Shown here piece by piece: positions 1,748 through 64,000 of a stretch of 64,000 nt of DNA. This stretch comes from a virus: the IMG/VR virus record IMGVR_UViG_3300045988_131228, positions 1 to 64,000 of that record; one strand, 5' to 3'. How positions within the stretch are numbered: the first letter of the stretch is position 1; each line of letters begins with the position of its first letter. The notes beneath the pieces were generated by a model, which searched no databases, was not told the origin of the DNA, and saw only the letters and a program-made list of their open reading frames with translations. The translations under genes were made by a program, and so were the position numbers.

Positions 1748-2422
1748 TCATCTACTCTCCTTTCCACTTGTCACACACATAAACAAGTACAAATCATTCC
1801 TACAAATCCACCAATAATGAATCCAATTACAATTCCTACGATCATTTATTTTCCCTCTTTCGCAGCAAAATACTGTTTTTGTTATATGTTTCGTAGCTTC
1901 ATAAGTTCTATGTATTTCTTTTGCAATCTCTTTATTGCTCATACCTTTTATCAACATATTTTTAATTGATAGCTTCTCAAAGTCAGTTATCTTATTTCTA
2001 TGTCGTTCTGGTTTACCGTTATCTTTCTTCCATTCATAGTTAATCCAGGATGGCTCTGGAAATAATGTTTCTCTTTCATATTTCTTCCAATTAATTACAT
2101 CCTGATGATTTTCAGCCCATTTCCAAAACTCTGCTGCGTCAATCAAATATCGTGTCTGATTTTTCAATTTGACCTTTTTACAAGGAAGATCATATTTATC
2201 AATCCATCTCACTACTACGCTTATATCTGAATGAAAGCATTTTGCAAGTGTTTTCGCACTAATTCTTTCACCATAATAATGATTTAGTCCCATTTTGCTT
2301 GCTTTATGCTTCACAGAAGATACACTTCTATCCAGAAATTTTGCCGTAGTTTCAACTGATTGATTCAAATACCTTCTATACATATAAGTTTCTTCATCTT
2401 TTGTCCATTCTCTTCTTCCCAT
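1748..2422 (-). CDS. putative HTH DNA-binding protein (Myb/SANT-like N-terminus, LuxR/sigma-r4-like HTH)
   Basis: 224-aa ORF. REWTKDEETYMYRRY at the N-terminus; GMSNKEIAKEIHRTYEATKHITK HTH-like segment. The C-terminal tail may be read-through. Confidence 0.45.
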   Translation of the reverse strand: MGRREWTKDEETYMYRRYLNQSVETTAKFLDRSVSSVKHKASKMGLNHYYGERISAKTLAKCFHSDISVVVRWIDKYDLPCKKVKLKNQTRYLIDAAEFWKWAENHQDVINWKKYERETLFPEPSWINYEWKKDNGKPERHRNKITDFEKLSIKNMLIKGMSNKEIAKEIHRTYEATKHITKTVFCCERGKINDRRNCNWIHYWWICRNDLYLFMCVTSGKESR

Positions 2423-2473
2423 ACACTACCTCTTAGCTTCTAGCTTTCAATAAAATACGATTTTCATTTACTC

Positions 2474-2734
2474 TTATGGTTCAATTAGTTTCATATAGTT
2501 CCCATCCGCAATTACTATAAATCTAGGATTTTCTTTAGATCCCATTAATGTAATTGCAATTTTACCGTTTGTCCAACAATCCCATATAAGTACATCACCT
2601 ATAATTTCACGACATTTAATGCTATGAAAATAATTCAATAATCTTCCATACAGTTCATCATATGATAAACCTCTTCTTGTTACTAATCCATTTTTCCCAT
2701 CTTTATGTGCTTCTTGAAAAGTCATATCATTCAC
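2474..2734 (-). CDS. hypothetical early protein
   Basis: 86-aa ORF in the co-oriented array. Confidence 0.5.
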   Translation of the reverse strand: MNDMTFQEAHKDGKNGLVTRRGLSYDELYGRLLNYFHSIKCREIIGDVLIWDCWTNGKIAITLMGSKENPRFIVIADGNYMKLIEP

Positions 2735-2888
2735 CCCTTGAATTTAAATTTACTTATGTAACATTTCTTTTAACCATGCATTAAAATTGAAATTCTCCAT
2801 ATTCTCTTCTCTTTCCGTATAGTTCCCGTTATAATTACGAAAACAGTTTCCAGAATCACGTTTGTCTTTATCCCAACATGATACATGC

Positions 2889-3155
2889 TTATTTGTCCCT
2901 TTCATTATTTTTCACCTCTTCCATCAGATATGATAATCCCTTACTATAGTGACGATTGAACCAATCATATACAGTATTCTTATTAGTTCCTTTTGGAAAT
3001 GCATACCATGCAGCTTTAAGATTTCCATTACGATCAACAGGAACGTTCTGAAATTCTTTCCATGAAGCTTCTACATTCTTATCAATTGTGTCTTGTAATG
3101 TTAGTTTTGATATTTCCAGTTCTTCATTTGCTGTTGTGATATTCATATTCTCCAT
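2889..3155 (-). CDS. hypothetical early protein
   Basis: 88-aa ORF in the co-oriented array. Confidence 0.5.
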   Translation of the reverse strand: MENMNITTANEELEISKLTLQDTIDKNVEASWKEFQNVPVDRNGNLKAAWYAFPKGTNKNTVYDWFNRHYSKGLSYLMEEVKNNERDK

Positions 3156-3393
3156 ATGTATTCACTGTTCCTTTCTACAAATTAATTGGATTTATAAATA
3201 TTACTTTATGATTCGTAATTTCCTTTTTGAACTTCATTTTTAATATAAAGTGGGATAATCCCAAATAACCAAAATGAAGTTTGCTTTATATATTGTTCAC
3301 CAACTTTTGTATAATAACCAGATTGCTTAACTTTTTTAATGTAAAATCTTTCTCTTTTAACTAACATATAACAATTTCCTTTCGATCAAAAAA

Positions 3394-3771
3394 TTATTTT
3401 AATTCTTCTATTGAAAATCCATATTTTTCTTCGAATTCATTTTCCCCGTAAGTCTCTAACATATCCATAATATTAGGATGTTGCCAATCAACAAATTCAA
3501 ATAATTCTTCTGCCACATCTTTGTACCCATTACATTCTTCTACAAAATCGTTGCCTGTGTAACAACTATTAAGAACATTTTTAATTTCTTCCTTATTTAA
3601 TTTTGTATCTATATTAATTTCATTCAAATCAATATCTGGAATATAAATAATATCATCAGTTATTTCAAAATCACTTTTATATATAATACAGTCTTGTCCA
3701 TCCGAAAAATCAAATAAATCTTTAAGTCTATATCCTTTGATTAATTTTTTCTTTAATTCTTTTACTGTCAT
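3394..3771 (-). CDS. hypothetical acidic protein
   Basis: 125-aa ORF, rich in D/E. Confidence 0.5.
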   Translation of the reverse strand: MTVKELKKKLIKGYRLKDLFDFSDGQDCIIYKSDFEITDDIIYIPDIDLNEINIDTKLNKEEIKNVLNSCYTGNDFVEECNGYKDVAEELFEFVDWQHPNIMDMLETYGENEFEEKYGFSIEELK

Positions 3772-5044: not shown

Positions 5045-5281
5045 TTAATAATTATTTCTCACATGTTTGATTTTGTTTTTAATTACTCTTAAAAATCCAC
5101 CATCAATTTTTAGGTTTTCACAATTTGAAGAATCTTTTTCTAACCAATATTCCATCTGTGCGCTCCATAAATCACGTTTACATGAGTCTGGTATATCAAT
5201 TACAATGTTTCCGTTTTTATCAATAGTTGCATTCATTTCGTCCTGTAAAGCTATAGTTAATTTCATATTTGTTTCCTCCAA
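5045..5281 (-). CDS. hypothetical early protein
   Basis: 78-aa ORF. Confidence 0.5.
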   Translation of the reverse strand: MEETNMKLTIALQDEMNATIDKNGNIVIDIPDSCKRDLWSAQMEYWLEKDSSNCENLKIDGGFLRVIKNKIKHVRNNY

Positions 5282-5307
5282 TCTTCAATTTGAAATATCT
5301 CTTTCAT

Positions 5308-5679
5308 CTAAAGTAAATCATATTTTTCTTCCCATAAAAGAAGTTCTTCTTCCGGCATCTGATCTAAAGTATCTCTTACTTGACTATGTATATCTTCTGG
5401 TGCGGTAAACGTTAATTCATATCCAAGAAATTCTTCTATCATGTCAACAGATTCATTGGAAATAATTTCCTCTAATTTATCTTCTATTGATTCATAACTA
5501 TTAGTTCTTTCCATTTCCTGAATATTATCACACCAGCTATTCTCACATTCTTCTGGTGGATTTTCTTCTCCATTACAAATCATATCTCTTAAAATTTCCT
5601 CTGCTTCTTCTGGTGAGTTGGCTTCAATTTCATATGTTTTTCCATAAGTTTCGTGATATTCAATACTAAATTTTTTCAT
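5308..5679 (-). CDS. hypothetical acidic protein
   Basis: 123-aa ORF, strongly acidic. Confidence 0.5.
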   Translation of the reverse strand: MKKFSIEYHETYGKTYEIEANSPEEAEEILRDMICNGEENPPEECENSWCDNIQEMERTNSYESIEDKLEEIISNESVDMIEEFLGYELTFTAPEDIHSQVRDTLDQMPEEELLLWEEKYDLL

Positions 5680-5684
5680 TTTCT

Positions 5685-5888
5685 TTACATCCTTTCCAAT
5701 ACTTTACAACAACGATCTGCAAGTTCTTCCATCTGTTCTTCTGTGATATGTCTAAATTTCCAACACCAGTCAATTCTATTACATATCCAGCCAATACTTT
5801 TATCATGCCAAGGTTTATATTCCTCATAATCCTTTAAAGCATTATCAATTTCCTGATAATAGTTTCTCTGTTTCTTTTCTTTCTTCAT
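5685..5888 (-). CDS. hypothetical early protein
   Basis: 67-aa ORF. Confidence 0.5.
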   Translation of the reverse strand: MKKEKKQRNYYQEIDNALKDYEEYKPWHDKSIGWICNRIDWCWKFRHITEEQMEELADRCCKVLERM

Positions 5889-5949
5889 AACGCATATTCT
5901 CCAATTAAAACAGGTGGCACTCTATATCAAGTACCACCTTTATGTAATA

Positions 5950-6711
5950 TTATCGTTCTGTATATTCCCATTCAGCAATAAAGTCAAATGCTTCATTATA
6001 ATACATAGGGTTTAAATCCTTGTAAGAACTACATCCAAACCTTTCCTTTAACTCATTCCACATATTAATAAAATAGCTTTTGGAGTAGCATTTGTATTTA
6101 GTCCCATGCGCTCCATCCAGAAGTTTATTGATTCTGTCTTTCGCTGCTTTATACAACTTCTGTTGCTGTCTAGTGGATAACGTCATATTTTCCACCATCT
6201 TGTTAAGCATTTCCGTTTGCTCTCCGAGAAGATCTTCCATTGCATTGATTTGAACTTGCATTCCTTCGATACGTCCTGTAAGTCCTAAATCATTAAACAA
6301 TTCTTGTTTCTGTTCTTCTGTTCCGAAAAATGCCTCGTGAAGTGTTTTAGCAGCTTTTAATTGATATAAAACCAGTTTTTGTACACCTTCTGGATTATTC
6401 CTTCTCATAGTAGGAGTAAGAGAAATTTTAGCAAGCCATAATGTAACATAATCTTCAATGACACATAATGTTTCCTGTTCTCCACCTTTGGAAGGGTAAC
6501 GCAAAATTGCGATTCCTTTTGAAAGCACGATATCTTTTCTTGCATTTTCAACCTGTCTCCTAGTCTGACCATCCGAAAACCCTAAGTCATAACAAACATT
6601 TCTGATTGCCAACCATAATTTTCCAGAATCATCTTTGATTCCTAACAGTTCACTACCTTCAAATGGAATTTTCTTTGTTTCTACCATAATTGATTCCTCC
6701 TGTACTTGCAT
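5950..6711 (-). CDS. phage antirepressor-like protein (Bro-N/Ant-type N-terminus plus ORF6C-like C-terminus)
   Basis: 253 aa. N-terminal IPFEGSELLGIKDDSGKLWLAIRNVCYDLGFS; C-terminal KLYKAAKDRINKLL...FGCSSYKDLNPMYYNEAFDFIAEWE. Confidence 0.6.
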   Translation of the reverse strand: MQVQEESIMVETKKIPFEGSELLGIKDDSGKLWLAIRNVCYDLGFSDGQTRRQVENARKDIVLSKGIAILRYPSKGGEQETLCVIEDYVTLWLAKISLTPTMRRNNPEGVQKLVLYQLKAAKTLHEAFFGTEEQKQELFNDLGLTGRIEGMQVQINAMEDLLGEQTEMLNKMVENMTLSTRQQQKLYKAAKDRINKLLDGAHGTKYKCYSKSYFINMWNELKERFGCSSYKDLNPMYYNEAFDFIAEWEYTER

Positions 6712-8173: not shown

Positions 8174-9280
8174 CTAACAAACCTCCTTATATAAAGGATT
8201 TACACCAGCAGATTTTTCAATAGTCTTTCTTGCATTCTCAATCATCTGCTCTGCATTTCCCATCTTGTCAATGTTTACTTTTAAATTTTCCATAGCTTCT
8301 AAACGTGTTTTCCCTTTTGCAATCAGCAAGCCAACTCTTTTAACAGATATTTTCCATTCGTCATTATCACGTAAAATAAAGAAGTCTATTCCATATTTAG
8401 TAAAGCATTCCGCAATAACTTTTCTCCATTCAGAATGATCTTTATTATGAAATGCAATGTAAACTTCCTGGATATCCTTTTCTTTCTGTTCTGCTCTCTT
8501 ACGTGGTTTATACTCAATAGGTTCTTTAAAATCTGAACTTGTTATACTTTCCAGATATGCCATTCTTTCCTTATAACCTTTAGGAAGTTTCAAGCCTGTT
8601 ACACACTCAAAGATTTTAATGCTTGCTTTATTTCCATTATGTAAACGTTCTTTAATCTGATTCTTACAATATGGAATATCATAATAATGGATTAATGGCA
8701 ATAAATTATAATTCCATTTCTTTTCTATGCCATATACATCAAGAAAAATATCATCAATAATTTTAGTTTCCATTTCTGGTAAACGTTCCATATCTTCTGC
8801 AAGTAAAGTCTTAACACGTTCTATTTCTTTCCGTTCCTGTTCTGCTTTTTCCAACACAGCACGTTCATTTTCTTCCTGCAAACGTTTCTGTTCTTCCATA
8901 CATACCTTATAATCTGCAATAGCTTTTTCCATTGCCTGTTCTGTATCAAGTCCGTTATTGATAAGATATTCGACAAAATCATATTCTGTCTTTTTCAGTT
9001 CTATATAAGTCTTTTCATTCTTGTTGACAAACTTATATAATGTTTTCGGTTTGGTTAATTCGCCATTACGCTTATAGTATGTATAGTTCTCTACTTTTTC
9101 CAGATAGTAACCTTCTAAAAGCTTTAAGCAAAGATAATCTACCATATTATATATTTTTCCATCATATCTAATTAATTTATCAAGTAAGTTTTCCACTTTT
9201 GTTTTACGTGGTTCTTTGATATTGTCTGTAAATCCAAAATAAAAGCTATCTGTTTCAATCATGTTCTTATCCTCCATCAC
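8174..9280 (-). CDS. hypothetical protein with central coiled coil
   Basis: 368-aa ORF. EEQKRLQEENERAVLEKAEQERKEIERVK segment. Confidence 0.55.
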   Translation of the reverse strand: MMEDKNMIETDSFYFGFTDNIKEPRKTKVENLLDKLIRYDGKIYNMVDYLCLKLLEGYYLEKVENYTYYKRNGELTKPKTLYKFVNKNEKTYIELKKTEYDFVEYLINNGLDTEQAMEKAIADYKVCMEEQKRLQEENERAVLEKAEQERKEIERVKTLLAEDMERLPEMETKIIDDIFLDVYGIEKKWNYNLLPLIHYYDIPYCKNQIKERLHNGNKASIKIFECVTGLKLPKGYKERMAYLESITSSDFKEPIEYKPRKRAEQKEKDIQEVYIAFHNKDHSEWRKVIAECFTKYGIDFFILRDNDEWKISVKRVGLLIAKGKTRLEAMENLKVNIDKMGNAEQMIENARKTIEKSAGVNPLYKEVC

Positions 9281-28494: not shown

Positions 28495-28567
28495 TGCGGA
28501 TTAGAGAAGTAGTTAACTCGCTTGGCTCATAACCAAGAGAACATTGGTGCAAATCCAATATCCGCTA
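28495..28567 (+). tRNA. tRNA-Met (anticodon CAT) with initiator-like features
   Basis: Hand-folded cloverleaf. Anticodon stem CTTGG/CCAAG, loop CTCATAA, T arm ATTGG-TGCAAAT-CCAAT, U8, A14, A21, 1:72 U-U mismatch, A11:U24, A73. Confidence 0.7.
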
Positions 28568-28599: not shown

Positions 28600-29478
28600 A
28601 CAATGTTATTGTTACGATTATGTGGCTTGACACAGATAGTATATCGTGAGGTATATAAAGATAGATTTACACCCTATCGCTATAGAAATATAGTCAATTC
28701 AAGCAAAACTGACATACCAGTAACTCAAAAGGTTGCGTTTCGCAATTGAGTCTATGCGGAAATAGTATGTATTATAAGGAGCGATAAAGTGATTTAGGGG
28801 CGACCGCTGAGAATTACTTTTTGACCGCAAATCAGATAGCTCATGCAAACTTATATGCATATAATGGTGAATCAGGAGGATAAATAGTGCGAGAAATTAT
28901 TAATCGAGTGCATTATCCATTTATATGAGTATATTACTTATATGAACGTTTAGTAGGGATTATAACTGAAAGACATGAAGGTGTGATGTATTTTTGTTCT
29001 CAAAAGGAATGAAAGCGTCTGGTGTAGCACATCTTCTGTAACTTGGACTTAAACTTGTTGTAAAGTAGAATAATATTATCGGGAATGGTGGAATGCCGTT
29101 TACGTTTAAAAGGTAAAAGAATATTTATATACTTAAATATTACATACAAAGCGAAAGTCTACACCTCTACATGGTGAAAACAACCTAATTCCATAGTACT
29201 TATAAGAGTATAATATGGACATTAATAAGTCTCGCAAGACTTTGAGATGTTTGATCGAGTTTGCACAGTTCTCTTAGCGGAGATTTATAGCACGGCGGTG
29301 TTAATGGAATAATAAAATCAGAGTAGTCATGTAGTAAAAGAGAAATGCCACTCTTTCAAAAAGGCGGTTGTGGAAGTTTACTATATATGCGTAAGGTATA
29401 TAGTGGATACGGAAAGAACTCATAATGTTCTAAAAGAACTTCTGTATAAATGTGTAATCTCAGCATTTATAATAATAA
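28600..29478 (+). ncRNA. candidate large structured non-coding RNA between tRNA genes (ROOL/GOLLD-class hypothesis)
   Basis: About 0.9 kb with no ORF of 60 aa or more on either strand. TTGACA at 28627. Many local hairpins, e.g. 28922-28944, 29228-29241, 29381-29403, 29412-29430. Confidence 0.3.
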
Positions 29479-29556
29479 TGATATATAGCTCAATTGGTTA
29501 GAGCGATTGTTTTCGTATGGATTTGGTAGATTTAGGTTCAAAGCCTAATATATCAA
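29479..29556 (+). tRNA. tRNA-like element or pseudo-tRNA with a degenerate anticodon stem
   Basis: Perfect 7-bp acceptor TGATATA/TATATCA, canonical D arm GCTC-AATTGGTTA-GAGC and T arm TTAGG-TTCAAAG-CCTAA. Only 3 of 5 anticodon-stem pairs form and the variable region is 9 nt. Confidence 0.45.
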
Positions 29557-30198: not shown

Positions 30199-30287
30199 GT
30201 ACAGGTGGCAGAGTCGGGTTTAATGCGGATGCCTTGAAAGCATTTGATGGATAAAACCATCCGTGGGTTCAAATCCTACCCTGTACG
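30199..30287 (+). tRNA. tRNA-Ser (anticodon TGA), class II with a long variable arm
   Basis: Acceptor GTACAGG/CCTGTAC, anticodon stem GATGC/GCATT, loop CTTGAAA, variable arm GATGG-ATAAAA-CCATC, T arm GTGGG-TTCAAAT-CCTAC, G73. Confidence 0.85.
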
Positions 30288-53723: not shown

Positions 53724-54212
53724 ATGGCAAAATCAGTTGCCAGAGATTTGGCTTTTGTCAAATCAAAAGTAATTTCTCGTCTATTAGAATCTGATGAATT
53801 TGCAAAAGTAATGTTGCGTAAGGAAGATTTTACTGATGATGAGAAAAACGACATGGAGTATAAACAAGTATTTGATTATCCTTATGTTGATGGAACGCAG
53901 GAAGAAGTTATGCCTTTTGTTTGTGTAGAAACAGTTTGTAGAGGTACAAATCGTACCGTAAAATCTATGGACTTGTATATCTGGATTTTCGTGCATCGTA
54001 ATTGTATGCAAATGGAATCTAATGTAAAAAGTTACATGGGTAATCGTGCAGATGTTCTTACAGATATTATAGAAAGACTTCTACGTGATTCTGATGATTT
54101 AGGAATTGGAAAACCAAGTCTTGATGACATTGGCTATACTGTTCCACAGTCCAGTTATTATGGACGACAACTCAAATATAGCATTCCTGATTTTAAAATC
54201 AAGGAGGTGTGA
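53724..54212 (+). CDS. hypothetical head-tail joining-region protein
   Basis: 162-aa ORF. Confidence 0.45.
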   Translation: MAKSVARDLAFVKSKVISRLLESDEFAKVMLRKEDFTDDEKNDMEYKQVFDYPYVDGTQEEVMPFVCVETVCRGTNRTVKSMDLYIWIFVHRNCMQMESNVKSYMGNRADVLTDIIERLLRDSDDLGIGKPSLDDIGYTVPQSSYYGRQLKYSIPDFKIKEV

Positions 54213-54215
54213 TAT

Positions 54216-55007
54216 TTGAAAGGATTTTCAGAGTATGACTATCTCTGTGATGAACCTTATTTTTATGAAGGTATAGGTCATGTTAAATGCCCTACTCTTA
54301 GGGATATAAGACATATAACTTATGGACAATTCAATATTTTTCTCTCTTATATTTCTATTACTCAGAAGCAATTTCTTGAAACATTCGGTCTTACTGAAAA
54401 ATTCAATTCCCTGGACGAAGAAGAAAAAAATAAAAATACTATTTACAATTTACTTACATTCGGAATGAATCGTGCAGATTTTCTTGCCTACATGATTAGT
54501 TTCTTTGTTATGGATGATTTTCAGTATAATCCAGAACAGAATGCTTTTCTCATTGGCACTTATGAGAAGGACGATGATGGAAAGGAAATCTTTAACGAAA
54601 CGGGGAAAATTGATAATAGCAATTTTGATGAATTTCGTGCGTTTCTGCAAGTTATATTAGGAATTAAATCTGAGAAAGAAGTTGAAAAACCTAAATATAA
54701 AAATAAGTTAGCTCAACGTATTGCTGAGAAATTAGCAAAACATAAGAGTGAACAAAAAGAAAAACAAACATCTGCGGATGATGATTATACATTACCAAAC
54801 ATGATTGTGAAATATTGTACTCACAACAAAGTTGGAATCAATATATTGAATGTTTGGGATATGACATATTATCAATTCATGAAGATGTTTTTAGAATATA
54901 GGATGGGAAGACAAGCAGATATAAATGATATGATGGCTGCTAATTCATTCTCATTCAAAAACTCTAAGGATTATAAACCTATGGAGTATATGAACAAAAT
55001 TAAATAA
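54216..55007 (+). CDS. hypothetical structural-module protein
   Basis: 263-aa ORF. Confidence 0.45.
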   Translation: MKGFSEYDYLCDEPYFYEGIGHVKCPTLRDIRHITYGQFNIFLSYISITQKQFLETFGLTEKFNSLDEEEKNKNTIYNLLTFGMNRADFLAYMISFFVMDDFQYNPEQNAFLIGTYEKDDDGKEIFNETGKIDNSNFDEFRAFLQVILGIKSEKEVEKPKYKNKLAQRIAEKLAKHKSEQKEKQTSADDDYTLPNMIVKYCTHNKVGINILNVWDMTYYQFMKMFLEYRMGRQADINDMMAANSFSFKNSKDYKPMEYMNKIK

Positions 55008-55080
55008 TGAAAACTTTCAAACAAAGTCGCTGAGATTTCAGTGGCTTATTTTATTTTTAAGAAAATGGAGGAATTAAATT

Positions 55081-55821
55081 ATGGCAAATATTGCAACAGA
55101 TCTTAATATGGCGAATCGTCAGTGCTGTGATCTTGATATTAGAGATTATAAAACTAAAGCACCTTGGATGTTTGCAGATTTCTGTAATACTACTACTGCT
55201 AACATTTCTGCGGATGCTGTATATGCAAATAAGAAAGGTGCTAAATGCATTAAATTCGATAATCCATTAGAAGGTACTATTACTATGGAATTTCAGGTAT
55301 CTCCATTTAGAATTTACGCAATGCTTTCTGATGGTGAAATTGAAACTTCTGCTGTAATCGCACGTAGAGAAAGTGTAACAGGTGAAGCTAGTGGAGTACT
55401 TAATCTTACAAAGACACCTGTACCAGGAAGTGTATTTGCAATTGATCCAACTACAGGTAAAACAATTGAAGGTACAGTTGCAGACAAGAAATTTACAGCG
55501 AAAACCACATCTGATATTGTAGCAGATACTACATATGAAGTAGCTTACCTTGAATCCAAAACTACTGGCATTAAGAAAATTACATTTAATAACAAGAAAC
55601 TGCCAAAAGATTTCTTTATTCAAATGTCTACTCTTAACAAAGATGAGAATGGTGATCAAGTACCTATGAGATTAACAGCTTATAAAGCTTCTCCACAGAG
55701 AAACTTTGAAATTTCTTTTGCATCTGATGGAGATCCTTCCAGCGTAACACTAACTTGTGATCTACTCGAAGATCATGACGGAAATGTTCTTGATATGATT
55801 GAGATTACATCTGAGGAATAA
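55081..55821 (+). CDS. putative major tail protein (position based)
   Basis: 246-aa ORF with SD GGAGGAATTAAATT. Confidence 0.35.
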   Translation: MANIATDLNMANRQCCDLDIRDYKTKAPWMFADFCNTTTANISADAVYANKKGAKCIKFDNPLEGTITMEFQVSPFRIYAMLSDGEIETSAVIARRESVTGEASGVLNLTKTPVPGSVFAIDPTTGKTIEGTVADKKFTAKTTSDIVADTTYEVAYLESKTTGIKKITFNNKKLPKDFFIQMSTLNKDENGDQVPMRLTAYKASPQRNFEISFASDGDPSSVTLTCDLLEDHDGNVLDMIEITSEE

Positions 55822-55884
55822 TTTTATTTTTATAGTAGGATGATACAATATCATCCTACTATATTTATTAAAAGGAGTTAAATA

Positions 55885-57180
55885 TTGAGTAATCAAAAAA
55901 TAATGCCTAAATTCAAATTAGAAGTTGGAGCATTCTTAGTTTCTGATAAAAGACAACTTCAAATTATTGATCGTGAATATAGACCTAAGATAAAATATAA
56001 AAATGATAAACCATTTACATCAAACGAAAAATGGTACAAATATAAATGTTATAAGTGTGGAAATACTGATTGGGCTATAGAGCAAGCATTATGTGGAAAA
56101 CAAAAGATTGGATGTAACGTATGTTGCAACTCTCCATCAAAAGTTGTTAGTGGTATAAATGATTTAACTATTACCGCAAGATGGATGATTAAATATTTTG
56201 AAAATCCAAAAGATGCAGAAAAATATACCAGAGGTTCAAGTAAAATTGTTGATATGGTTTGCCCCGATTGTGGTAGACATCACAAGAATAAAATATCCAC
56301 AGTATATGCGAATCATAATCTTTCATGTCCATGTCAAGATGGTTGGAGTTATCCAAATAAGTTTATGTATTCAGTTTTAGAACAATCAGGTGTGAACTTT
56401 GAAACTGAGAAAATTTTCGATTGGTCTAAAGGAAGAATGTACGATGATTATATAGAATATAATGGTTTAAAGATTATTACTGAACAGCATGGAATACAAC
56501 ATTATATAGATCATCCACTTAATAAAAAATCACGCAATCTTAAAGAAGAACAAGAAAATGATAAAATGAAATATAATTTAGCTATGGAAAATGGTATAGA
56601 TTATTATTTTACAATTGATTGCAGAGAATCCACAAAAGAACATATCAAAAATTCTATCATCAATTCTGAATTATTTAAAATCTTAAATATAAATCCAGAA
56701 AATATTAATTTTGATAAATGTGATAAATTTGCTTCATCAAATATGGCTAAACAAGTATGTGATTATCGTAATGAACATCCTGATATGACGATGAAAGAAA
56801 TTGCGCCATTATTTCATGTATGCCACGATACTATAAGAAATTGGGTTAAAAAGGGTGCAAAACTTGGTTGGTGTACATATGAGAAATTTGATGATTTAAA
56901 ATTACGGTATCAACGTGAAGATATGCCTGTTAATAATCGTCCTATTCACTGTATCACTACAGATACATACCATCGTAGCGCAACAAAATTTGTAGAATAT
57001 TATCAATCTCTTACAGGAAAGAAACTCTGTGCAAGAAATATTCGTTCAGTATGTACAGGTAAACGTAATCATGTCAATAATATGAATTTTGAATACATTA
57101 CTCAAGAACAATTCAATCAATTAAAAGAAAAATATCCAGATAAAGTATACGGAGAACTATTTGTATCTCACGCATCATAA
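55885..57180 (+). CDS. homing-endonuclease-like protein: Zn-ribbons, PD-(D/E)XK-like core, HTH and a NUMOD-like tail
   Basis: 431 aa. YKCYKCGN..CNVCC, CPDCGRHH..CPCQ, MYDDYIEYNGLKIITEQHGIQH, PIHCITTDTYHRSATKF...IRSVCTGKR. TTG start after AAGGAG. Confidence 0.55.
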   Translation: MSNQKIMPKFKLEVGAFLVSDKRQLQIIDREYRPKIKYKNDKPFTSNEKWYKYKCYKCGNTDWAIEQALCGKQKIGCNVCCNSPSKVVSGINDLTITARWMIKYFENPKDAEKYTRGSSKIVDMVCPDCGRHHKNKISTVYANHNLSCPCQDGWSYPNKFMYSVLEQSGVNFETEKIFDWSKGRMYDDYIEYNGLKIITEQHGIQHYIDHPLNKKSRNLKEEQENDKMKYNLAMENGIDYYFTIDCRESTKEHIKNSIINSELFKILNINPENINFDKCDKFASSNMAKQVCDYRNEHPDMTMKEIAPLFHVCHDTIRNWVKKGAKLGWCTYEKFDDLKLRYQREDMPVNNRPIHCITTDTYHRSATKFVEYYQSLTGKKLCARNIRSVCTGKRNHVNNMNFEYITQEQFNQLKEKYPDKVYGELFVSHAS

Positions 57181-57197
57181 AGGAGAATATAACCACA

Positions 57198-57473
57198 ATG
57201 ACAAAAGAATGTAAAGTATTACTACGCAATCAGTGTGTTATGGTTGTTGATTTTGATGGAAAAGAAATTCAAATGCCGTCTGACCACACAGATAAAGATA
57301 CTGTATTCGTAAAGTATGAAAATGATAGATATTCTATCACTTGTAATTTAGAAGAAGAAAAGAAACCTGTAAAGGTTAAACCTGTTTCAAGAGTAAAGAA
57401 GCAAAAGAAAGTAACGGAGGTTGAGTTAGCTGATGATGTTGCAACAGATGAACCAAAGGATAAATCTGAATAA
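57198..57473 (+). CDS. hypothetical protein
   Basis: 91-aa ORF. Confidence 0.5.
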   Translation: MTKECKVLLRNQCVMVVDFDGKEIQMPSDHTDKDTVFVKYENDRYSITCNLEEEKKPVKVKPVSRVKKQKKVTEVELADDVATDEPKDKSE

Positions 57474-57569
57474 ATTAATCGTAGTTAGTATAAGTAATTA
57501 GTAGGGATGCTAGCTATGAATTAATGGCTTGTGTCCCTATTTTTTACGATTTTCAGGAGAAAACGTGAT

Positions 57570-57818
57570 ATGAAAAAACAATTATTTGATAGCTTCGAGG
57601 AAGTAGTTGAAGCTTTTGGAGAAGATAATCTTGTAGCTATTACTTTTATGCCACAGATTATTTTTTATTTAAGTAACTATAATATTCAACCTGTATGGAC
57701 TATTCCATCAGAAGTTAATAATGAAAAACTAGCCTTTTATTTTTTGAAAGCGGAAACAAAGAAGCCGTTTGAAGCATGGCAAAAACGTAGATTAGAAAAA
57801 GAACATAAGAAAGCATAA
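57570..57818 (+). CDS. hypothetical protein
   Basis: 82 aa from the ATG at 57570, after CAGGAGAAAACGTGAT. The track ORF starts at 57531 in the same frame. Confidence 0.45.
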   Translation: MKKQLFDSFEEVVEAFGEDNLVAITFMPQIIFYLSNYNIQPVWTIPSEVNNEKLAFYFLKAETKKPFEAWQKRRLEKEHKKA

Positions 57819-57837
57819 TCTTAAAGGGACATGAATA

Positions 57838-58356
57838 ATGGCAAGAAGTGTAGGTAAACAATTTGAAGATAATTTTAAGAAAAGTGTACCAAACTATACA
57901 CTCTCCTATCGTCCCCCTGATTCAGCACAAGGTTTTGATGTAGGATCAAGTAATAAGCTAAGATTCAGTCGTCACAGCCCATGCGATTTGATGGTATTCG
58001 ATGGATCACGAAATCTTTTTCTTACACTTGAATTAAAAACATTTCAAGGTTCATGTAGTTTTGAACGTGATAAAAGTGAAAAAGGAATTGTGCATTATTA
58101 TCAGATTAAGAGTTTAAAAGATTTTGCACAATATAATCGTGTTATAAGCGGATTAGTATTAGACTTTCGATCAAGTGATAATACATATTTTTTAAATATT
58201 AATCAATGGGATGATTTCATCTCACATATAGAAAAGAAAAGTTTTAACGAAAAGGATTTGCTTGAGTATGCAAGTCCTATTTTAATTCATAAAGAGAAAT
58301 TAAAAGTAAATTATAGATATGATTTAGAATCATTTTTAAATGATGTAAATTATTAA
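57838..58356 (+). CDS. PD-(D/E)XK nuclease, RecU/Holliday-junction-resolvase-like
   Basis: 172 aa. CDLMVFDG..LFLTLELKTFQGSCSF...YYQIKSL...GLVLDF shows a D..E-x-K core with RecU-like downstream spacing. Confidence 0.5.
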   Translation: MARSVGKQFEDNFKKSVPNYTLSYRPPDSAQGFDVGSSNKLRFSRHSPCDLMVFDGSRNLFLTLELKTFQGSCSFERDKSEKGIVHYYQIKSLKDFAQYNRVISGLVLDFRSSDNTYFLNINQWDDFISHIEKKSFNEKDLLEYASPILIHKEKLKVNYRYDLESFLNDVNY

Positions 58357-58684
58357 AATCGTAGTTAGGACTAATTGTTAAGTAGTCTATTTTATAGACA
58401 AGAGTGTAAATAAGTGGACAAATGTATTTTGCATTCCTTGTTCACACTTACTTAACAATAGGTTTCAAGCCTTAGTGACTGCTACTATCGAAAGATATGT
58501 TGCAGATATGAACTACGTTAGAGAAAAGGTTAAAAACACACCTTCAGATGTGCTCGTCAGTCGGAAGCTCTGTGAGTGCCAATCAAGAAACTATGCTAAT
58601 GTCCTGCATAGATAACAGAGAAACACATATACCCTCTCCAACATTGGCAAGACGAAAATTACTCCGAAAGGAAGGTATCCAGAG
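58357..58684 (+). ncRNA. candidate omega-RNA (IscB guide RNA scaffold) in the 328-nt leader upstream of iscB
   Basis: ORF-free. Long-range 11-bp stem ATTGTTAAGTA (58375-58385)/TACTTAACAAT (about 58449-58459) encloses nested hairpins (GTCTA..TAGAC). A further hairpin CTATGC..GCATAG follows. Position matches known IscB loci. Confidence 0.5.
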
Positions 58685-59932
58685 ATGGAAAATAAAATTG
58701 AATATTGTTTTGTTATTGATAAAAATAATAAACCATTAGCTCCGACAAAAATTAATAAAGGTTGGTATTTGATTAGAAAAGGTAGAGCTAAATTAAAAAG
58801 TAAATATCCTATGGTGATACAATTAGAAAAAGAAGTTAAATCTGATGAAGACGATGAAAGTCATATGGTTTGTGGCATAGATGACGGTTCTACACATGTT
58901 GGTTTAGCTATTGTTCAGAAATGTCTTACTAAAAATAAAGTAGTGTTTAAAGGAACGATTGAGCAACGCCAGGATGTAAAGCATCTTATGGATGTAAGGC
59001 GTGGATATAGACGTTACCATCGTTACCACAAAAGATACAGACAAGCAAGATTTAATAATCGTTCATCTTCTAAAAGAACTTGTAGATTAGCACCAAGCAT
59101 CAAACAAAAGAAAGACGCTATTTTAAGAGTATTATATCAATTAAATAGCTGGATAGATATTCAAGAATATTACCTTGAAGATGTTTGTATAGATATTCGT
59201 GCAATGACAGATGATTATAAACCTTATAGATGGCAATATCAGAAATCTAATCGCTTAGATGAAAATTTAAGAAAAGCAACTATCCTGAGAGATGGATGTA
59301 GATGTCAAGAATGTGGGAAATCTAACTGTATATTAGAAGTACATCATATTAGAGCAAGAAGATATGGTGGAGCTAATACCATTGGAAATTTAATTACTTT
59401 ATGTAAAAAGTGCCATGATAAAACAGAAAGTAGAGAAAAGGATTTTGAAGAAAGATATTTCAATATGATTAAATCTAAGCCAAAAAGATTTGATTATGCA
59501 ATGCATGTAATGCAGGGAAAAACTTATTTGAGAGAAAAGATTTCTGAATTAGGAATATTACATCTTACAAATGGTGGAGAAACTGCTAATAAACGTATTG
59601 AGTGGAACATAGTAAAATCTCATAGTAATGATGCCATATGTATTGCAGATGGCATCCCAGATACTTGTGATATTAAAGAGTGGATTATTAAACCAATGAG
59701 AAGGAAATCAAAGGCAAAAACTGATAATGTGCTAGGAATTAAGCATAGAGATTTAGTTTCTTATACATATAAAAGTGGAGAAACTCATACAGGATATGTT
59801 ACTGCTTTATATCCAGAACAATTGGCTTTAAATTTTCAATCAAAAACTAAACATTGCAAGAAAGTAAATGCACGAAAATGCAGATTACTTTGGAAATTCA
59901 ATAAAATTTACTGGTTAGAACAATGTGTATAA
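58685..59932 (+). CDS. iscB: IscB-type RNA-guided nuclease (PLMP/RRXRR domain, split RuvC with inserted HNH)
   Basis: N-terminal [15 protein letters not shown]; Ruv[17 protein letters not shown]; Arg-rich bridge [22 protein letters not shown]; Ruv[11 protein letters not shown]; [33 protein letters not shown]; Ruv[15 protein letters not shown]. Confidence 0.85.
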
Positions 59933-59982
59933 TATTGCACATTTATCTATAAATAAACACATTTTATAAAGGAGAAGAAAAT

Positions 59983-60702
59983 ATGAAGAAAAGCTTACTC
60001 AAAGTAAAAAATACAATCACATTTGAAGATAAACTCAATGCAATTGATCTTATTCTGAATGCTTTTTGGGATGATGAAACAGGTGAATATATACCTTGGA
60101 TGGAAGAACCTGCACGAGTTATCGCAGTTGGAAAATATTTCATTGAGGGATATACACTTGAAGATGGTGAAAATATTTTTAAACTATATTCATCAGATGA
60201 TGATTTAAAGAGTCTTATTGATACATTTATTAATCCAGACTATGAGTCAAGATGTGAATCTGTAAAAGAATACATTAAGGTCATGGATTTTGTAGACAAG
60301 ATGGTTCATGACAAACTTGAATGGACTAAGCAGAATATCATTCATGCAAATCCAGATATGGATAGAATTGTAGAAGGTGTTAATGTATTTATTGACGCAT
60401 TTAAGAATTTTGCTAATCTTGACCTTACTGCTCTCACGCCAGAAATGGTTAAAGATGGAGTATCTTTTATGGAAAAACTGAAAGAATCTGGTTTTGAAAT
60501 TAATGCAGAGAATCTTACTAAGATTGTAAAAGATGCTGCGGCATTTAATATTGACAAAGCTAGCCAGGATATTATTGATGCTAAGAATGAACAGATTAAG
60601 AAATTACAGGAAGAAAATAAGGAACTAAAGAAAGAGAAATTCAATGTAGTAAACGAAGATAATGTTTCTGGTGGAAAGACAAATAACAGAAAAAAGAAAT
60701 AA
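59983..60702 (+). CDS. hypothetical tail-module protein (acidic, coiled-coil C-terminus)
   Basis: 239-aa ORF. AAAGGAGAAGAAAAT precedes the ATG. Confidence 0.45.
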   Translation: MKKSLLKVKNTITFEDKLNAIDLILNAFWDDETGEYIPWMEEPARVIAVGKYFIEGYTLEDGENIFKLYSSDDDLKSLIDTFINPDYESRCESVKEYIKVMDFVDKMVHDKLEWTKQNIIHANPDMDRIVEGVNVFIDAFKNFANLDLTALTPEMVKDGVSFMEKLKESGFEINAENLTKIVKDAAAFNIDKASQDIIDAKNEQIKKLQEENKELKKEKFNVVNEDNVSGGKTNNRKKK

Positions 60703-60741
60703 ACTTATACAAGAACCAACACCCTTATAAAATAACAAATG

Positions 60742-60846
60742 CTATTTGCGTACAACGTGATCGTATATTATAAATGCAATGCCAATGATGTCACAAATGG
60801 CAGTCACTAACATGCACACGCTACCACAGTCGAGTGGGATATACAT
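60742..60846 (-). CDS. small hydrophobic peptide (34 aa), candidate type I toxin-like or membrane peptide
   Basis: Minus strand AAGGAGGTACATAT-ATG. MYIPLDCGSVCMLVTAICDIIGIAFIIYDHVVRK. It is antisense to the surrounding late operon. Confidence 0.4.
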   Translation of the reverse strand: MYIPLDCGSVCMLVTAICDIIGIAFIIYDHVVRK

Positions 60847-61100
60847 ATATGTACCTCCTTGTATTTTATATCTATGTGAAAGGCTAATGCCTGAGTTGTG
60901 AAATGTAGGCATAATCATATAGTTGTTATCTCTCGATTATATGCGCTTAATAGTTTACATCGTAAACCTGATAGCATTCCCTGTGGCATATAAGGATGTT
61001 GGCTCATGTCATATTTTACCAGATTATATTATGTAGTTCAATACAGAACGTTTGTTTAACGGAGGGTACTACTCTCCTATCTTATACGGAGGAAATTGTT

Positions 61101-61466
61101 ATGGGAATAATTATGGATGCAATTGATGCACAAATTATTAGACCAAGAGTTGAAGCTGCTGAACAAGAAGGCTTTCAAATGACTCAAACAGATATTCACA
61201 ATTTTTATTCAAGTGGATCACCTGTAAAATATATCAGAACTGGAACATATGAAAGTTCACCCCGTTCATCTGGTGTATCTGGTGGTAATGGAAATTATCA
61301 TTATGATATTCATTTGAATGTAGCAGAATATCCTTACGGCAAACATAGTGGTTTGCAGATCATGAGTGATATACAAAACAACGGTAGTGGGGTTTTGGGT
61401 ACACCTGGTACGTGGGATGATGCTGTACAGGATATTATAGAAGCCGTAAAAGCTAATTTTAGCTAA
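61101..61466 (+). CDS. hypothetical tail/virion protein
   Basis: 121 aa from the ATG at 61101, after GGAGGAAATTGTT. The track ORF extends upstream to 60996. Confidence 0.5.
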   Translation: MGIIMDAIDAQIIRPRVEAAEQEGFQMTQTDIHNFYSSGSPVKYIRTGTYESSPRSSGVSGGNGNYHYDIHLNVAEYPYGKHSGLQIMSDIQNNGSGVLGTPGTWDDAVQDIIEAVKANFS

Positions 61467-61545
61467 GAGGTATAGCTATCAAAAATCTATAAGAAAGAAA
61501 TAAAATAATGTAACAATTAAACAACATGAATCCTAAATTTCATCG

Positions 61546-61556
61546 TGCGATATAAT
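61546..61556 (+). promoter_or_regulatory. TGCGATATAAT -10 element on the plus strand; candidate antisense (antitoxin) RNA promoter
   Basis: This 11-mer also occurs on the minus strand at 61978-61988 and 62436-62446. Confidence 0.35.
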
Positions 61557-61593
61557 GCAAAAAGAAAAGAAGTCACTATGAAAAACATAGTAA
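61557..61593 (-). terminator. minus-strand intrinsic terminator of small-peptide locus A
   Basis: GTTACTATG ttttt CATAGTGAC, then TTCTTTTCTTTTT on the minus strand. Confidence 0.55.
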
Positions 61594-61662
61594 CTTCCCT
61601 CTCCCTCTCTTTACGACCTATATACACTTGTTTCCTCTTCTCATCTCCTGATAGACTTTGGA

Positions 61663-61821
61663 TTATTCTTTGTAGAATTTGCAAGAAAATTTTATTCCGT
61701 TTTGTAAACTAAAACTGAATTGCAATTCTCTTGCTTTCTTGGAAAGAATACGATGGATGGCAAAGTATCCTAACCCAAGTAACCCAAAGTCAAAACCATG
61801 TGACAGTATTAGGTCAACCAT
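61663..61821 (-). CDS. small hydrophobic peptide A (52 aa), candidate type I toxin
   Basis: GGGAGGTGAAAC-ATG. MVDLILSHGFDFGLLGLGYFAIHRILSKKARELQFSFSLQNGIKFSCKFYKE. Collinear paralogue of peptide B. Confidence 0.5.
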   Translation of the reverse strand: MVDLILSHGFDFGLLGLGYFAIHRILSKKARELQFSFSLQNGIKFSCKFYKE

Positions 61822-61977
61822 GTTTCACCTCCCTTCTGTTATTATCAACTTCGGGGAAATGATTCGTGGAGAACCCACGTAGATTGGATATTTCCATAAA
61901 GAGGTACTCACTTTCTCTGTCTTAGCAGAAAGCTTGGTTAATAAGTTACACTTCAAAGATGACTTTGATTCTTTATG

Positions 61978-61988
61978 ATTATATCGCA
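61978..61988 (-). promoter_or_regulatory. TGCGATATAAT -10 element driving locus A (about 150-nt 5' UTR)
   Basis: Minus strand TGCGATATAATC; TTGTGT lies 17 nt upstream. Confidence 0.45.
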
Positions 61989-62029
61989 AATGAACAATCA
62001 ACACAACAATAAAATCGCTACTGATAGAT

Positions 62030-62066
62030 ATATAAAAGAAAAGAAGCTACTATGCGATATGGTAAC
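62030..62066 (-). terminator. minus-strand intrinsic terminator of small-peptide locus B
   Basis: Imperfect hairpin GTTACCATATCGCATAGTAGC, then TTCTTTTCTTTT on the minus strand. Confidence 0.45.
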
Positions 62067-62123
62067 TTCTCTTTCTACGTCATGAAATTTTCATATGATC
62101 TCTCTTCTCCTATTTTTCAGCAC

Positions 62124-62279
62124 TTAATCTTTGTAGAACGAGCAATTAATATCTATATCCACAAGTCCGATATGAAAATGAAAATTTTTTACTCTCTTTG
62201 CGAAAATATGGTTGATACTAAAACATACAACACAAAGACCTGCAAATTTCAGTGCATAATCAAGTATAAGATCAATCAC
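62124..62279 (-). CDS. small hydrophobic peptide B (51 aa), candidate type I toxin
   Basis: AGGAGGTAAATC-GTG. (M)IDLILDYALKFAGLCVVCFSINHIFAKRVKNFHFHIGLVDIDINCSFYKD. Confidence 0.5.
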   Translation of the reverse strand: MIDLILDYALKFAGLCVVCFSINHIFAKRVKNFHFHIGLVDIDINCSFYKD

Positions 62280-62435
62280 GATTTACCTCCTTTCTGTTAG
62301 ACTACAACATTCAGGAAAATAAATTGTGAAGAACTCACAGAACTTATAAAGATTTTCATGAGATGTTATACCTTTCTTAATAAGCAAAGGTGTTTACAAG
62401 TTACACTTCTCAGCACGTAGCTTCGATTCTTTTTA

Positions 62436-62446
62436 ATTATATCGCA
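62436..62446 (-). promoter_or_regulatory. TGCGATATAAT -10 element driving locus B (about 150-nt 5' UTR)
   Basis: Minus strand TTGAAT, 17 nt, TATAAT. Confidence 0.5.
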
Positions 62447-62482
62447 GAAATTTAGACAATTCAATAAATAATATCGTAGTTC

Positions 62483-62520
62483 ACTCTCCTTTCTTTCGGA
62501 GAGTTTTATTTTTTTGTAAG
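62483..62520 (+). terminator. intrinsic terminator upstream of the tape-measure gene
   Basis: ACTCTCC tttctttc GGAGAGT, then TTTTATTTTTTT. Confidence 0.55.
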
Positions 62521-62538
62521 AAAGGAGAATAAATTACT

Positions 62539-64000
62539 ATGGGAGCGCAATTTCAAGTTGACGTAAATGTTGTTACTCATGGTGCAGAAAAAGTTAATGA
62601 GCTTGAACAAAAGTTAAGCAAAATGCAAAATAAATCTGTTGATATTAAATTCAATGTTCAAGGTCAAAATCAAATTAACAATATTATACAACAACTCCAA
62701 AATGTTCAGAGACAAGGAATAAACCTTAATCTCAATAATAACAATATGGCACGTTCTGCACAGAATGCAGCACGACAGTATGCGCAAAATTTTCAACGCC
62801 AGATAAATTCTTCAAAATTAAAATATAATATTGACACAGGAAAATATGCAGCCGCATCATCCAGAATGAGCAAACAATTAGGGGCATATGGAACTCAAGA
62901 TACTGCAAATATTCAAAAGGCTACAGCGGCTCTAGCTTCATATAATCAGGCTTTAGATAAACTTCAAAATCATTACAATGGATCTAATGTTTTAGGTAAA
63001 AAACAGTTACAACAAACTTTTCAAGATATAACTAAAGCAGGAGATACTTTTAAGAATACTTTGTCTCAAATTAGAGACGAATCGTCAAAAGCATTATCTC
63101 CGACAGTTGCTAGTGCATCTGGAAATAAAGTTGTTGAGTATATGAACGCTAACTCAAGGGCGGTTAAGAAATATGGCGCAAGTCTAAAAACACTTGAACA
63201 ACAATACCGCTCAATGACAACTATTGAAGAAAAGGCAAACTATGACAAGGTTTTTGCAAATTTAAAATCAAGAATTAGTGCAGAAGGACTATCAGGAAAT
63301 TCATGGTTTGGCGAATTAAAACGTGCCACAGGACAGATTGCGCAATTTGCTGGTGTATATGGTATGTTGCAAAATACTGTAATGCAAATACCATACAAAG
63401 CAATTACGGCAGTAAAAGATTATGATGCTGCTATGACTAATATGCAGATGGCAACAGGTATTTCAAATACCCAAGCGCAAGAACTGATGAATACTTATTC
63501 AGACATGGGTAAGCAATTAAAAGTTACTGGTGTCGATGTTGCTACTTCTGCTACAGAATGGATGAAACAAGGTAAAACAATTGAAGAATCAAACAAACTT
63601 GCACAAGATTCTATTGTTTTATCCAAGATTGGTAATTTGTCTTCCGATGATGCTACAAGAACCATTACCGCTGCTATGAAATCATATGATTTGAATGAGT
63701 CTCAAGTTATGGATTTTGTTGATCAGATTTCTGCAATTGATATGGCTTCTGCTACTGATGTTGGCGGTCTTGCAGATGCTTTTAATGAAGTTGCAGCCAA
63801 TGCCAATCAAGCAGGAATTAGTACAAAACAACTTCTCTCCTATGCTGCTGTAATTGGTGAAACAACTCAGGAGGGTATGTCTTCTGTTGGTACATCTCTT
63901 AATGCTATCTTTTCTCGTATGGGTAATATTAAACTTTCACGTTTAAAAGATTATCAAAATGGTGGAGAAGATTTATCTAATGTAGAAACTGTATTGAGAG
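62539..64000 (+). CDS. tail tape-measure protein (5' part; runs off the window)
   Basis: ORF open from the ATG at 62539 (after AAAGGAGAATAAATTACT) to the window end. TP901-type core AMTNMQMATGIS..AQELMN...ATSATEWMKQG...VGGLADAFNEVAANANQAGIS...VGTSLNAIFSRM. Confidence 0.8.
   Translation, partial: MGAQFQVDVNVVTHGAEKVNELEQKLSKMQNKSVDIKFNVQGQNQINNIIQQLQNVQRQGINLNLNNNNMARSAQNAARQYAQNFQRQINSSKLKYNIDTGKYAAASSRMSKQLGAYGTQDTANIQKATAALASYNQALDKLQNHYNGSNVLGKKQLQQTFQDITKAGDTFKNTLSQIRDESSKALSPTVASASGNKVVEYMNANSRAVKKYGASLKTLEQQYRSMTTIEEKANYDKVFANLKSRISAEGLSGNSWFGELKRATGQIAQFAGVYGMLQNTVMQIPYKAITAVKDYDAAMTNMQMATGISNTQAQELMNTYSDMGKQLKVTGVDVATSATEWMKQGKTIEESNKLAQDSIVLSKIGNLSSDDATRTITAAMKSYDLNESQVMDFVDQISAIDMASATDVGGLADAFNEVAANANQAGISTKQLLSYAAVIGETTQEGMSSVGTSLNAIFSRMGNIKLSRLKDYQNGGEDLSNVETVLR

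Follow-up and report, generated by a model that had tools for sequence, protein, structure and literature searches.

A non-autonomous IS200/IS605-type element encoding an IscB nuclease in a phage genome, and the case for its RNA-guided homing between phages

Results

An intact iscB gene in a viral genome

The window analysed here, the whole of a 64,000-nucleotide viral sequence (positions 1 to 64,000 of IMG/VR record IMGVR_UViG_3300045988_131228), comes from a gut phage and contains a 1603-bp inserted element at positions 58367-59969 (+ strand). The element, delimited by empty sites in related phages and by its conserved termini, consists of a structured omega-RNA leader followed by a gene for IscB, a compact RNA-guided nuclease of the type ancestral to Cas9.

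The iscB gene (58685-59932, + strand), identified by open reading frame (ORF) calling and characterised by Pfam, NCBIfam and PDB matches, motif alignment and dN/dS analysis, encodes 415 aa with a PLMP-like N-terminus, a split RuvC domain, an Arg-rich bridge helix, an HNH insert and a C-terminal region that interacts with the target-adjacent motif (TAM). Pfam recognised RRXRR (7e-47, 159.9 bits, residues 9-187) and HNH (4e-11, 43.3 bits, residues 207-249), and the NCBIfam equivalog model NF040563 (guided_IscB) scored 285.8 bits, against a curated cut-off of 175 bits. RuvC-I, bridge helix, RuvC-II, HNH and RuvC-III follow each other in that order. In an alignment of 39 phage copies of the lineage, the RuvC residues D66 (GIDDG), E165 and H313/D316 (SHSNDA), the HNH residues H220/H221, N235 and H244, and the zinc-binding Cys 207/210/240/243 were each kept in 38-39 of the 39 members. 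The ORF is thus confirmed, by sequence, as an intact IscB, as the initial annotation had proposed from its hallmarks and its apparently intact catalytic residues. The protein, at only 415 aa, fits the IscB model and not a Cas9 model, and no CRISPR-like repeat array was found within 54000-64000.

The best match among solved structures was HfmIscB (PDB 9k2z; 838 bits, 85.7% identity, residues 4-415), followed by OgeuIscB and other IscBs at about 91-98 bits. The sole catalytic difference is that the deposited HfmIscB chain has Ala where the window protein has H220, which we assume to be an engineered inactivation. Comparison of the window gene with ten other phage copies gave dN/dS values of 0.07-0.15, with dS of 0.3-1.2, indicating that iscB is under strong purifying selection and that its function is apparently maintained.

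A covarying omega-RNA leader with a predicted flank-derived guide

The omega-RNA scaffold (58367-58684, + strand), assigned to the HEARO type by Rfam and covariation, opens with the transposon-end motif AGGAC (58367-58371) and ends at the iscB start codon. HEARO (RF02033) aligned in the correct orientation to 58377-58662, over model positions 1-211 of 211, with 35.9 bits and an E-value of 3.4e-5 in E-value mode, a score below the Rfam gathering score of 83; at the gathering threshold, Rfam reported no HEARO in the leader, and only GOLLD and tRNAs over the window. Because the match was seen only in E-value mode, we tested the leader structure independently by covariation, using 38 aligned non-identical leaders from related loci and an RNAalifold consensus.

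Of the 63 pairs predicted, 35 showed compensatory changes on both sides, and 98.5% of the cells were paired on the consensus structure. None of 500 column shuffles reached the observed values on any of five measures, and sliding the 3' partners by 1-3 columns reduced pairing to 28-45% and the covarying pairs to 5-8. As judged from this alignment, the evidence is decisive that the leader encodes an RNA of conserved structure, whose long-range helices and pseudoknot-like pairing are those to be expected of an IscB omega-RNA. The leader structure suggested earlier was therefore borne out, by 35 covarying pairs of 63 and a HEARO alignment that is full-length and sub-threshold; the description of its 328 nt as ORF-free was inexact, as two short mechanical ORFs (46 and 63 aa) lie inside, which is immaterial. 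The RuvC/RRXRR domain and the covarying omega-RNA also rule out a protein-only, free-standing HNH homing endonuclease.

It is barely credible that the window copy is a decayed or domesticated relic that has no nuclease role and serves, for example, as a regulator. Other phages do contain remnants and copies with internal deletions, and the copy of phage VL10 has an eroded 3' end, but the window copy is full-length with catalytic and zinc residues intact, its dN/dS is about 0.1, and its omega-RNA is conserved with covariation.

The 16 nt directly 5' of the conserved scaffold start, TATTAAAATCGTAGTT (58351-58366, + strand), are the predicted guide-encoding flank, the length being assumed from characterised IscBs. 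This flank overlaps the TAA stop codon (58354-58356) of the upstream resolvase gene, and the only perfect match to TATTAAAATCGTAGTT in the window is the flank itself. When 46 distinct flank contexts were compared, the information in the 20 nt before the 5' terminus was at most 0.6 bit per position, and conservation began abruptly at R-G-R-A-C-T-A-A-T-T. The absence of conservation 5' of AGGAC fits a guide that each copy takes from its adjoining DNA. No promoter-like site was found on the + strand upstream of the guide and the flanking genes are co-oriented with the element, a pattern that fits read-through from the co-oriented resolvase gene.

Discrete ends and exact empty sites

Comparison with related phages, as proposed in the initial annotation, revealed a precise empty site. 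Sequence stretches included in our comparisons, mostly IMG/VR contigs and some named phages, are designated by L-numbers. The 176-kb faecal phage MT835469 (L001) matches the neighbourhood of the element at approximately 90-98%, without the 1.6-kb insert, and its whole genome contains no fragment of the IscB element. Its uninterrupted site, ATCGTAGTT directly followed by AGGAGAAGAAAA, is also present in five IMG/VR contigs (L125-L129). The empty allele of MT835469 reads ...TTATTAAATCGTAGTT AGGAG AAGAAAACATG, whereas the occupied allele of the window reads ...TTATTAAAATCGTAGTT, then the element, AGGACTAATTGTTAAG ... CACATTTTATAA, and then AGGAGAAGAAAATATG.

The 3' terminus of the element, ...CACATTTATCTATAAATAAACACATTTTATAA (59933-59969, + strand; in the TnpA frame, the left end), shows conservation from copy to copy, and internally deleted mini-elements and remnants have kept it too. 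It is followed by AGGAG (59970-59974, + strand), which, from the comparison of insertion sites, we infer to be the TAM (CTCCT in the TnpA frame), and which is also the Shine-Dalgarno sequence of the downstream gene (ATG at 59983). AGGAG is single-copy in the empty alleles, and it follows that the motif is part of the target site, not of the insert.

All five contigs L125-L129 show a perfect 16/16 match to the predicted guide of the window, followed by AGGAG, and in two of them the left flank is 99.5% identical to that of the window. In contrast to the AAAA of the guide, the target in MT835469 has AAA (L001, about 8270-8295), a one-base deletion that would bulge the guide-target duplex and makes this allele a possible escape variant.

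The boundary model predicted empty sites at two more unrelated loci, and both were found: L148 pairs with the L010-type insertion, and the Staphylococcus phages phiSA_BS1, phiSA_BS2, PSU4, RSM-J51Sa and JDF86 contain the empty site for the insertion of phage Golestan101 at the ORF172/phoH junction, where the motif is AGGGGA, before phoH. No match in IMG/VR was found to the empty site predicted for the L019-type insertion. The element therefore has discrete ends, with an exact empty site, at three independent occupied/empty loci.

As AGGA is present at both junctions, the element has an alternative registration at 58371-59973. The AGGA pair might then be a target duplication or a microhomology, and the element might have entered Shine-Dalgarno sites by microhomology through a route independent of TnpA. 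AGGA at both junctions, GGGA at both junctions in L050 and L052, weak terminal hairpins and the lack of TnpA in any sequence searched would agree with such a route. We nevertheless regard it as very unlikely, given that the two junction motifs can differ within one copy (AGAAC/AGGAG in L060 and L063, GGGAC/AGGAG in L077, AAGAC/AGGAG in L022), and that their fifth base is always C at the 5' junction but G at the 3' junction. Moreover, we know of no microhomology-insertion mechanism for IscB elements.

A phage-borne lineage inserted before Shine-Dalgarno sequences

A protein scan of IMG/VR yielded 100 candidate stretches. At least 97 of them code for relatives (65-100% identity), spread over numerous viral contigs with lengths of 5-270 kb. 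Copies of the lineage occupy 36 or more distinct sites, and the 18-nt 5' terminus alone identified 42 further IMG/VR stretches, although the 18-mer matches in L112 and L113 lie inside unrelated sequence and were treated as due to chance. The 5' terminus reads R-G-R-A-C in 46/46 flank contexts, with unrelated upstream flanks, and (A)GG(A/G)G follows the 3' end in 35 of 37 full-length copies. In 35/36 cases, an ORF of 50 aa or more begins 5-18 nt past the GG; a co-oriented ORF ends at most 60 nt upstream in 23/36, and in 10 of these it ends within ±2 nt of the boundary. The rule for this lineage is, hence, insertion after the stop codon of one gene and before the Shine-Dalgarno sequence of the next, in the orientation of both.

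The same search in 185,579 bacterial and archaeal species, with one genome each, produced 12 loci only. All 12 are on contigs of metagenome-assembled genomes (MAGs), several of 55-208 kb and several phage-sized. Within these collections the lineage appears to be essentially phage-borne and nearly restricted to phages. Cultured Staphylococcus Herelleviridae carry relatives at 51-59% identity.

Several copies depart from the simple arrangement. The 90-kb viral contig IMGVR_UViG_3300029443_000474 (L017, L075) contains two copies, of different subfamilies and at different sites, which are 90% and 70% identical to the window protein. The unrelated 83-kb faecal phage MT835474 carries a 509-bp internally deleted mini-element (L002, 4916-5425), placed directly before AGGAGG and an ATG, that retains a complete omega-RNA (approximately 80-85% identical), the first ~17 and last ~30 iscB codons and both termini; it could be a guide-RNA-only copy served in trans. 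Only the two element termini, fused into remnants of 36-80 nt, are left in L084 (- strand), L101 (- strand), L089 and L122, and these remnants still have a stop codon on one side and AGGAG/AGGG with a start codon on the other. Such terminus-only remnants part the old target from the TAM, and might be cleavage-resistant alleles or derivatives resembling miniature inverted-repeat transposable elements (MITEs). A 1018-aa ORF in L089, after an omega-RNA-like start, was considered as an IscB fusion and rejected, since by eye it is of the DNA polymerase III alpha type and lies downstream of a ~75-nt remnant.

The cultured lytic phage Golestan101 (L142, LC557520) contains the IscB element (2230-3745) and, 1.4 kb downstream, a TnpB gene (5161-6233) with OrfB_IS605 and Cas12f1-like TNB domains, that is, two different OMEGA nucleases in one phage. 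The gene annotated as 'transposase' 1.4 kb from a Staphylococcus phage IscB, a candidate for the missing TnpA, is TnpB. In the Silviavirus copy of VL10 (L143, OP940114; 2230-3770), the 5' terminus is degenerate, the 3' terminus is eroded or absent, and the stop codon of iscB and the start of the following gene overlap, suggesting a fixed or immobilised copy.

IS200/IS605-type organisation without a TnpA gene

The element was also compared with what is known of IS200/IS605-family transposons. Read in the TnpA frame, its layout is CTCCT, left end, iscB in antisense, right end terminating in GTCCT, and then the guide target, which is the canonical layout of a non-autonomous member. IS200/IS605-style ends and a conserved adjoining motif are present at no fewer than 36 sites, as in that family. 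According to Meers et al. (PMC10055086), the TAM corresponds to the TnpA target motif next to the left end, and IscB and TnpB cut the donor joint through a flank-derived guide, using that motif as TAM.

The statement in the initial annotation that no Y1 TnpA lies nearby holds: the window has 61 ORFs that reach 90 aa, none of which is a TnpA, and a probe for IS608 TnpA found none either. Additionally, only 35-60 nt follow the iscB stop in the copies of the lineage, so no copy has room for tnpA, and the window element is non-autonomous. Meers et al. reported tnpA near only ~1.5% of iscB genes (PMC10055086), and a missing TnpA does not, consequently, set this locus apart, ~98.5% of iscB loci being alike in this respect.

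Near-identical elements in diverged flanks

To evaluate spread at the site of the window, we compared occupied and empty alleles. Seven contigs with the element at this site differ by 0-2 positions in its 1602 nt (99.9-100% identity), whereas their flanks are 86-99.9% identical over 1.3-1.5 kb, mosaic, and interrupted by large indels within 300-1000 nt. The two major left-flank haplotypes each include occupied and empty alleles. Over the first 50 nt of their left flank, occupied alleles are 100% identical, against 94-98% for empty ones, and position -20 is A in all occupied alleles and C in the five empty alleles with a perfect target. The right flank shows no comparable pattern. A near-identical element in diverged flanks is the pattern that would be expected of recent lateral copying at one site, and these comparisons suggest, without proving it, that the element copies itself into phages that are devoid of it.

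Genomic neighbourhood

The gene upstream of the element encodes a Holliday-junction-resolvase/RecU-like protein, matching PHROG 843 at 2.6e-19 and Pfam RecU only below threshold, in agreement with the RecU-like neighbour annotated initially. The placement of the locus between tail genes was confirmed in part: a virion structural protein is encoded upstream and a PhageMin_Tail protein is found somewhere in the window.

The window and MT835469 have a mosaic relationship, with 26 aligned blocks covering about 35 of 64 kb and many indels. A second insertion relative to MT835469, independent of the IscB element, occupies 55878-57179, 1.2 kb upstream of it. Its ORF (55885-57180; 431 aa, Cys-rich) matches PHROG homing-endonuclease/HNH families and lies between a virion structural gene and small ORFs. 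A GOLLD RNA (28976-29466) scored 172.4 bits, over a Rfam gathering score of 150, inside a tRNA cluster, flanked by tRNAs at 28495-28567, 29479-29556 and 30199-30287. Other Pfam domains in the window are an integrase, GIY-YIG, a second HNH, GmrSD_N and an antirepressor.

Discussion

We interpret positions 58367-59969 as a non-autonomous element of the IS200/IS605 family (ISC type), an OMEGA element in a phage genome with an omega-RNA gene and an intact iscB, that most likely spreads by RNA-guided homing between co-infecting phages; we assign this reading a probability of roughly 0.7. Homing gains support because empty alleles with a perfect guide match and TAM exist in near-identical phages, because a near-identical element sits in flanks that differ by up to 14%, and because the lineage is nearly restricted to phages. 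The homing, or inter-phage, role proposed in the initial annotation thus has real comparative support, and we infer it from these comparisons. That annotation, however, set such a role against that of a transposon passenger, an opposition that does not stand, as the element has IS200/IS605 termini and lies next to its motif at 36 or more sites. It had also regarded IS200/605 ends together with tnpA as an argument against its proposal: the ends were found, and tnpA was not.

The mechanism that we propose is modelled on the established action of IscB and TnpB, whereas the identity of the protein and RNA, the ends and the insertion rule come from the present comparisons. Read-through from the upstream phage gene would produce an RNA whose 5' ~16 nt, TATTAAAATCGTAGTT, derive from the flank and serve as guide. 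IscB with its omega-RNA would recognise the 16-mer only with AGGAG behind it, that is, in the empty allele; in the occupied allele the 16-mer is followed by AGGAC-TAATT of the element, and the phage would spare itself. When occupied and empty phages co-infect a cell, or after excision, the empty allele would be cut and then repaired by recombination from the occupied genome, copying the element in a process of RNA-guided homing that would in effect be a gene drive. Movement to new sites would rely on a Y1 TnpA acting in trans, from the host or from another element, and inserting next to CTCCT. A host TnpA in trans would be the conventional answer for new sites, and none was found in the searched sequences.

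Several points weigh against this interpretation. Guide- and TAM-dependent cleavage by the window IscB is predicted, with indirect support from the solved HfmIscB of its lineage, and AGGAG is proposed as TAM from insertion sites; in L083, AGGAC follows the 3' end. The AGGAC terminus differs from AGGAG at one of five positions, so that self-sparing would depend on position 5 and on what follows it. AGGA at both junctions could instead be a 4-bp target duplication, which leaves a small doubt on the absence of a duplication, and the HEARO score falls short of gathering, as indicated above. Of the DNA hairpins by which TnpA would be expected to recognise the termini there is at most a weak sign: the omega-RNA end has a 6-bp stem at a distance of 18 nt (z = -1.1), and no significant DNA stem was found at the other, 3', end of the element (z = +0.6). 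The IS608 TnpA probe (PDB 2a6m), which was validated at 345 bits over its full length, retrieved no TnpA from 1.17 Mb of IscB-bearing loci, nor from the whole 176 kb of MT835469, so that a TnpA to account for the colonisation of new sites is lacking from the searched sequences. Finally, a co-conversion gradient was looked for in the right flank and none was seen, and an identical element in diverged flanks could also come from ordinary phage recombination.

The element might alternatively be an ordinary transposon passenger, brought from the host chromosome by TnpA, with IscB acting only in 'restorative' homing and without any drive from phage to phage; its abundance in phages would then reflect frequent hopping. 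Its ends resemble those of insertion sequences (IS), it is inserted next to a TAM at many sites, restorative homing after TnpA excision is a published role of IscB (PMC10055086), and TnpA genes do exist in phages, the same IS608 probe detecting them in 122 phage records. Despite these similarities, we consider this explanation unlikely. Close relatives are nearly absent from the 185,579 species genomes, where the 12 loci are on MAG contigs, several of them phage-sized; no TnpA was found in the phage type searched, which leaves no excision to restore; and, at one and the same site, backgrounds that have diverged carry an identical element.

It is more doubtful still that the complex of IscB and omega-RNA is mainly an inter-phage weapon, destroying the genomes of competing phages with empty sites, with copying as an incidental result. 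Empty alleles with perfect targets coexist in the same gut viromes, and phage homing endonucleases are described as giving a competitive advantage (PMC13565253). Sequence alone cannot tell a weapon from homing, but the flanks of empty and occupied alleles are 94-100% identical within 300 nt, similar enough for recombinational repair, and an identical element in different backgrounds indicates copying. Of these alternatives, we retain RNA-guided homing between co-infecting phages as our preferred interpretation.

The nuclease itself is already known, as HfmIscB of the same lineage has been solved, and the interesting part is its phage-restricted spread beside Shine-Dalgarno sites. HfmIscB is of the same enzyme type and presumably shares the omega-RNA fold, and differs in being an allele at another insertion site, so that its guide is different. 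The deposited chain is 99.8% identical to the copy in L027 (3013-4245; IMGVR_UViG_3300045988_110678), which suggests that the characterised enzyme is probably of phage origin. ISC elements, such as those of OgeuIscB and of GstIscB from ISGst5, have the same domain order and an upstream omega-RNA on the same strand, bounded by the transposon end; their guide also comes from the flank, the TAM flanks the far end, and tnpA is usually lacking (PMC10055086). OgeuIscB, however, scores only about 91 bits with the window IscB, and the AGGAG inferred here as TAM, a Shine-Dalgarno sequence, contrasts with the AT-rich TTCAT or NWRRNA of known ISC elements. The window lineage further differs from these in its occurrence almost only in phage genomes, with no TnpA partner found.

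Free-standing phage homing endonucleases (T4 Seg/Mob and HNH homing endonuclease genes) are likewise intergenic, polymorphic for presence and absence, and expected to spread by co-infection (PMC13565253). Unlike with these enzymes, recognition by the window element would be through a 16-nt RNA guide plus TAM and not through protein, and the element has exact, portable termini at many unrelated sites. A further parallel is the spread of IS605 elements in plasmid populations, driven by TnpB without TnpA. In this 'non-restorative homing' (PMC13565253), an OMEGA nuclease cuts the copy devoid of the element and repair copies the element, independently of TnpA; that case differs in concerning TnpB and multicopy plasmids. 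A 2026 review treats homing into 'coinfected phages/plasmids' as a theoretical category (PMC13565253), and in a Silviavirus genome paper HEARO figures only among the annotations (PMC13346280). Our literature search, which did not extend to key subscription papers, returned no published description of a phage-restricted IscB lineage at Shine-Dalgarno sites.

More broadly, the whole lineage might be a phage-specialised form of IscB that acts as an RNA-guided gene drive between co-infecting phages, needs no transposase and uses the Shine-Dalgarno sequence as TAM, a generalisation that we offer tentatively and at somewhat less than even odds. If this were true, a Shine-Dalgarno TAM would direct every insertion into the gap that separates a stop codon from the ribosome-binding site of the following gene, oriented so as to be transcribed, at near-zero cost to the phage and with the guide transcribed for free, and the element could land at any gene start. 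On this view, the short remnants of other phages that consist of two termini would be 'immune' alleles, resistant to cleavage.

The current view of IscB and TnpB nucleases is that they serve to skew inheritance in favour of the transposons that encode them, as shown for chromosomes and plasmids. The locus described here and its relatives constitute a natural data set for phages, with occupied and empty alleles, targets with perfect guide and TAM, and an identical element in diverged backgrounds. The cultured Staphylococcus pairs, with Golestan101 occupied and phiSA_BS1, phiSA_BS2 and PSU4 empty, would allow a direct test of RNA-guided homing between viruses. The element would also account for one class of genes annotated as 'HNH endonuclease' in therapeutic phages of Staphylococcus, and its association with gene starts suggests that the Shine-Dalgarno TAM is an adaptation for harmless insertion in densely packed phage genomes.

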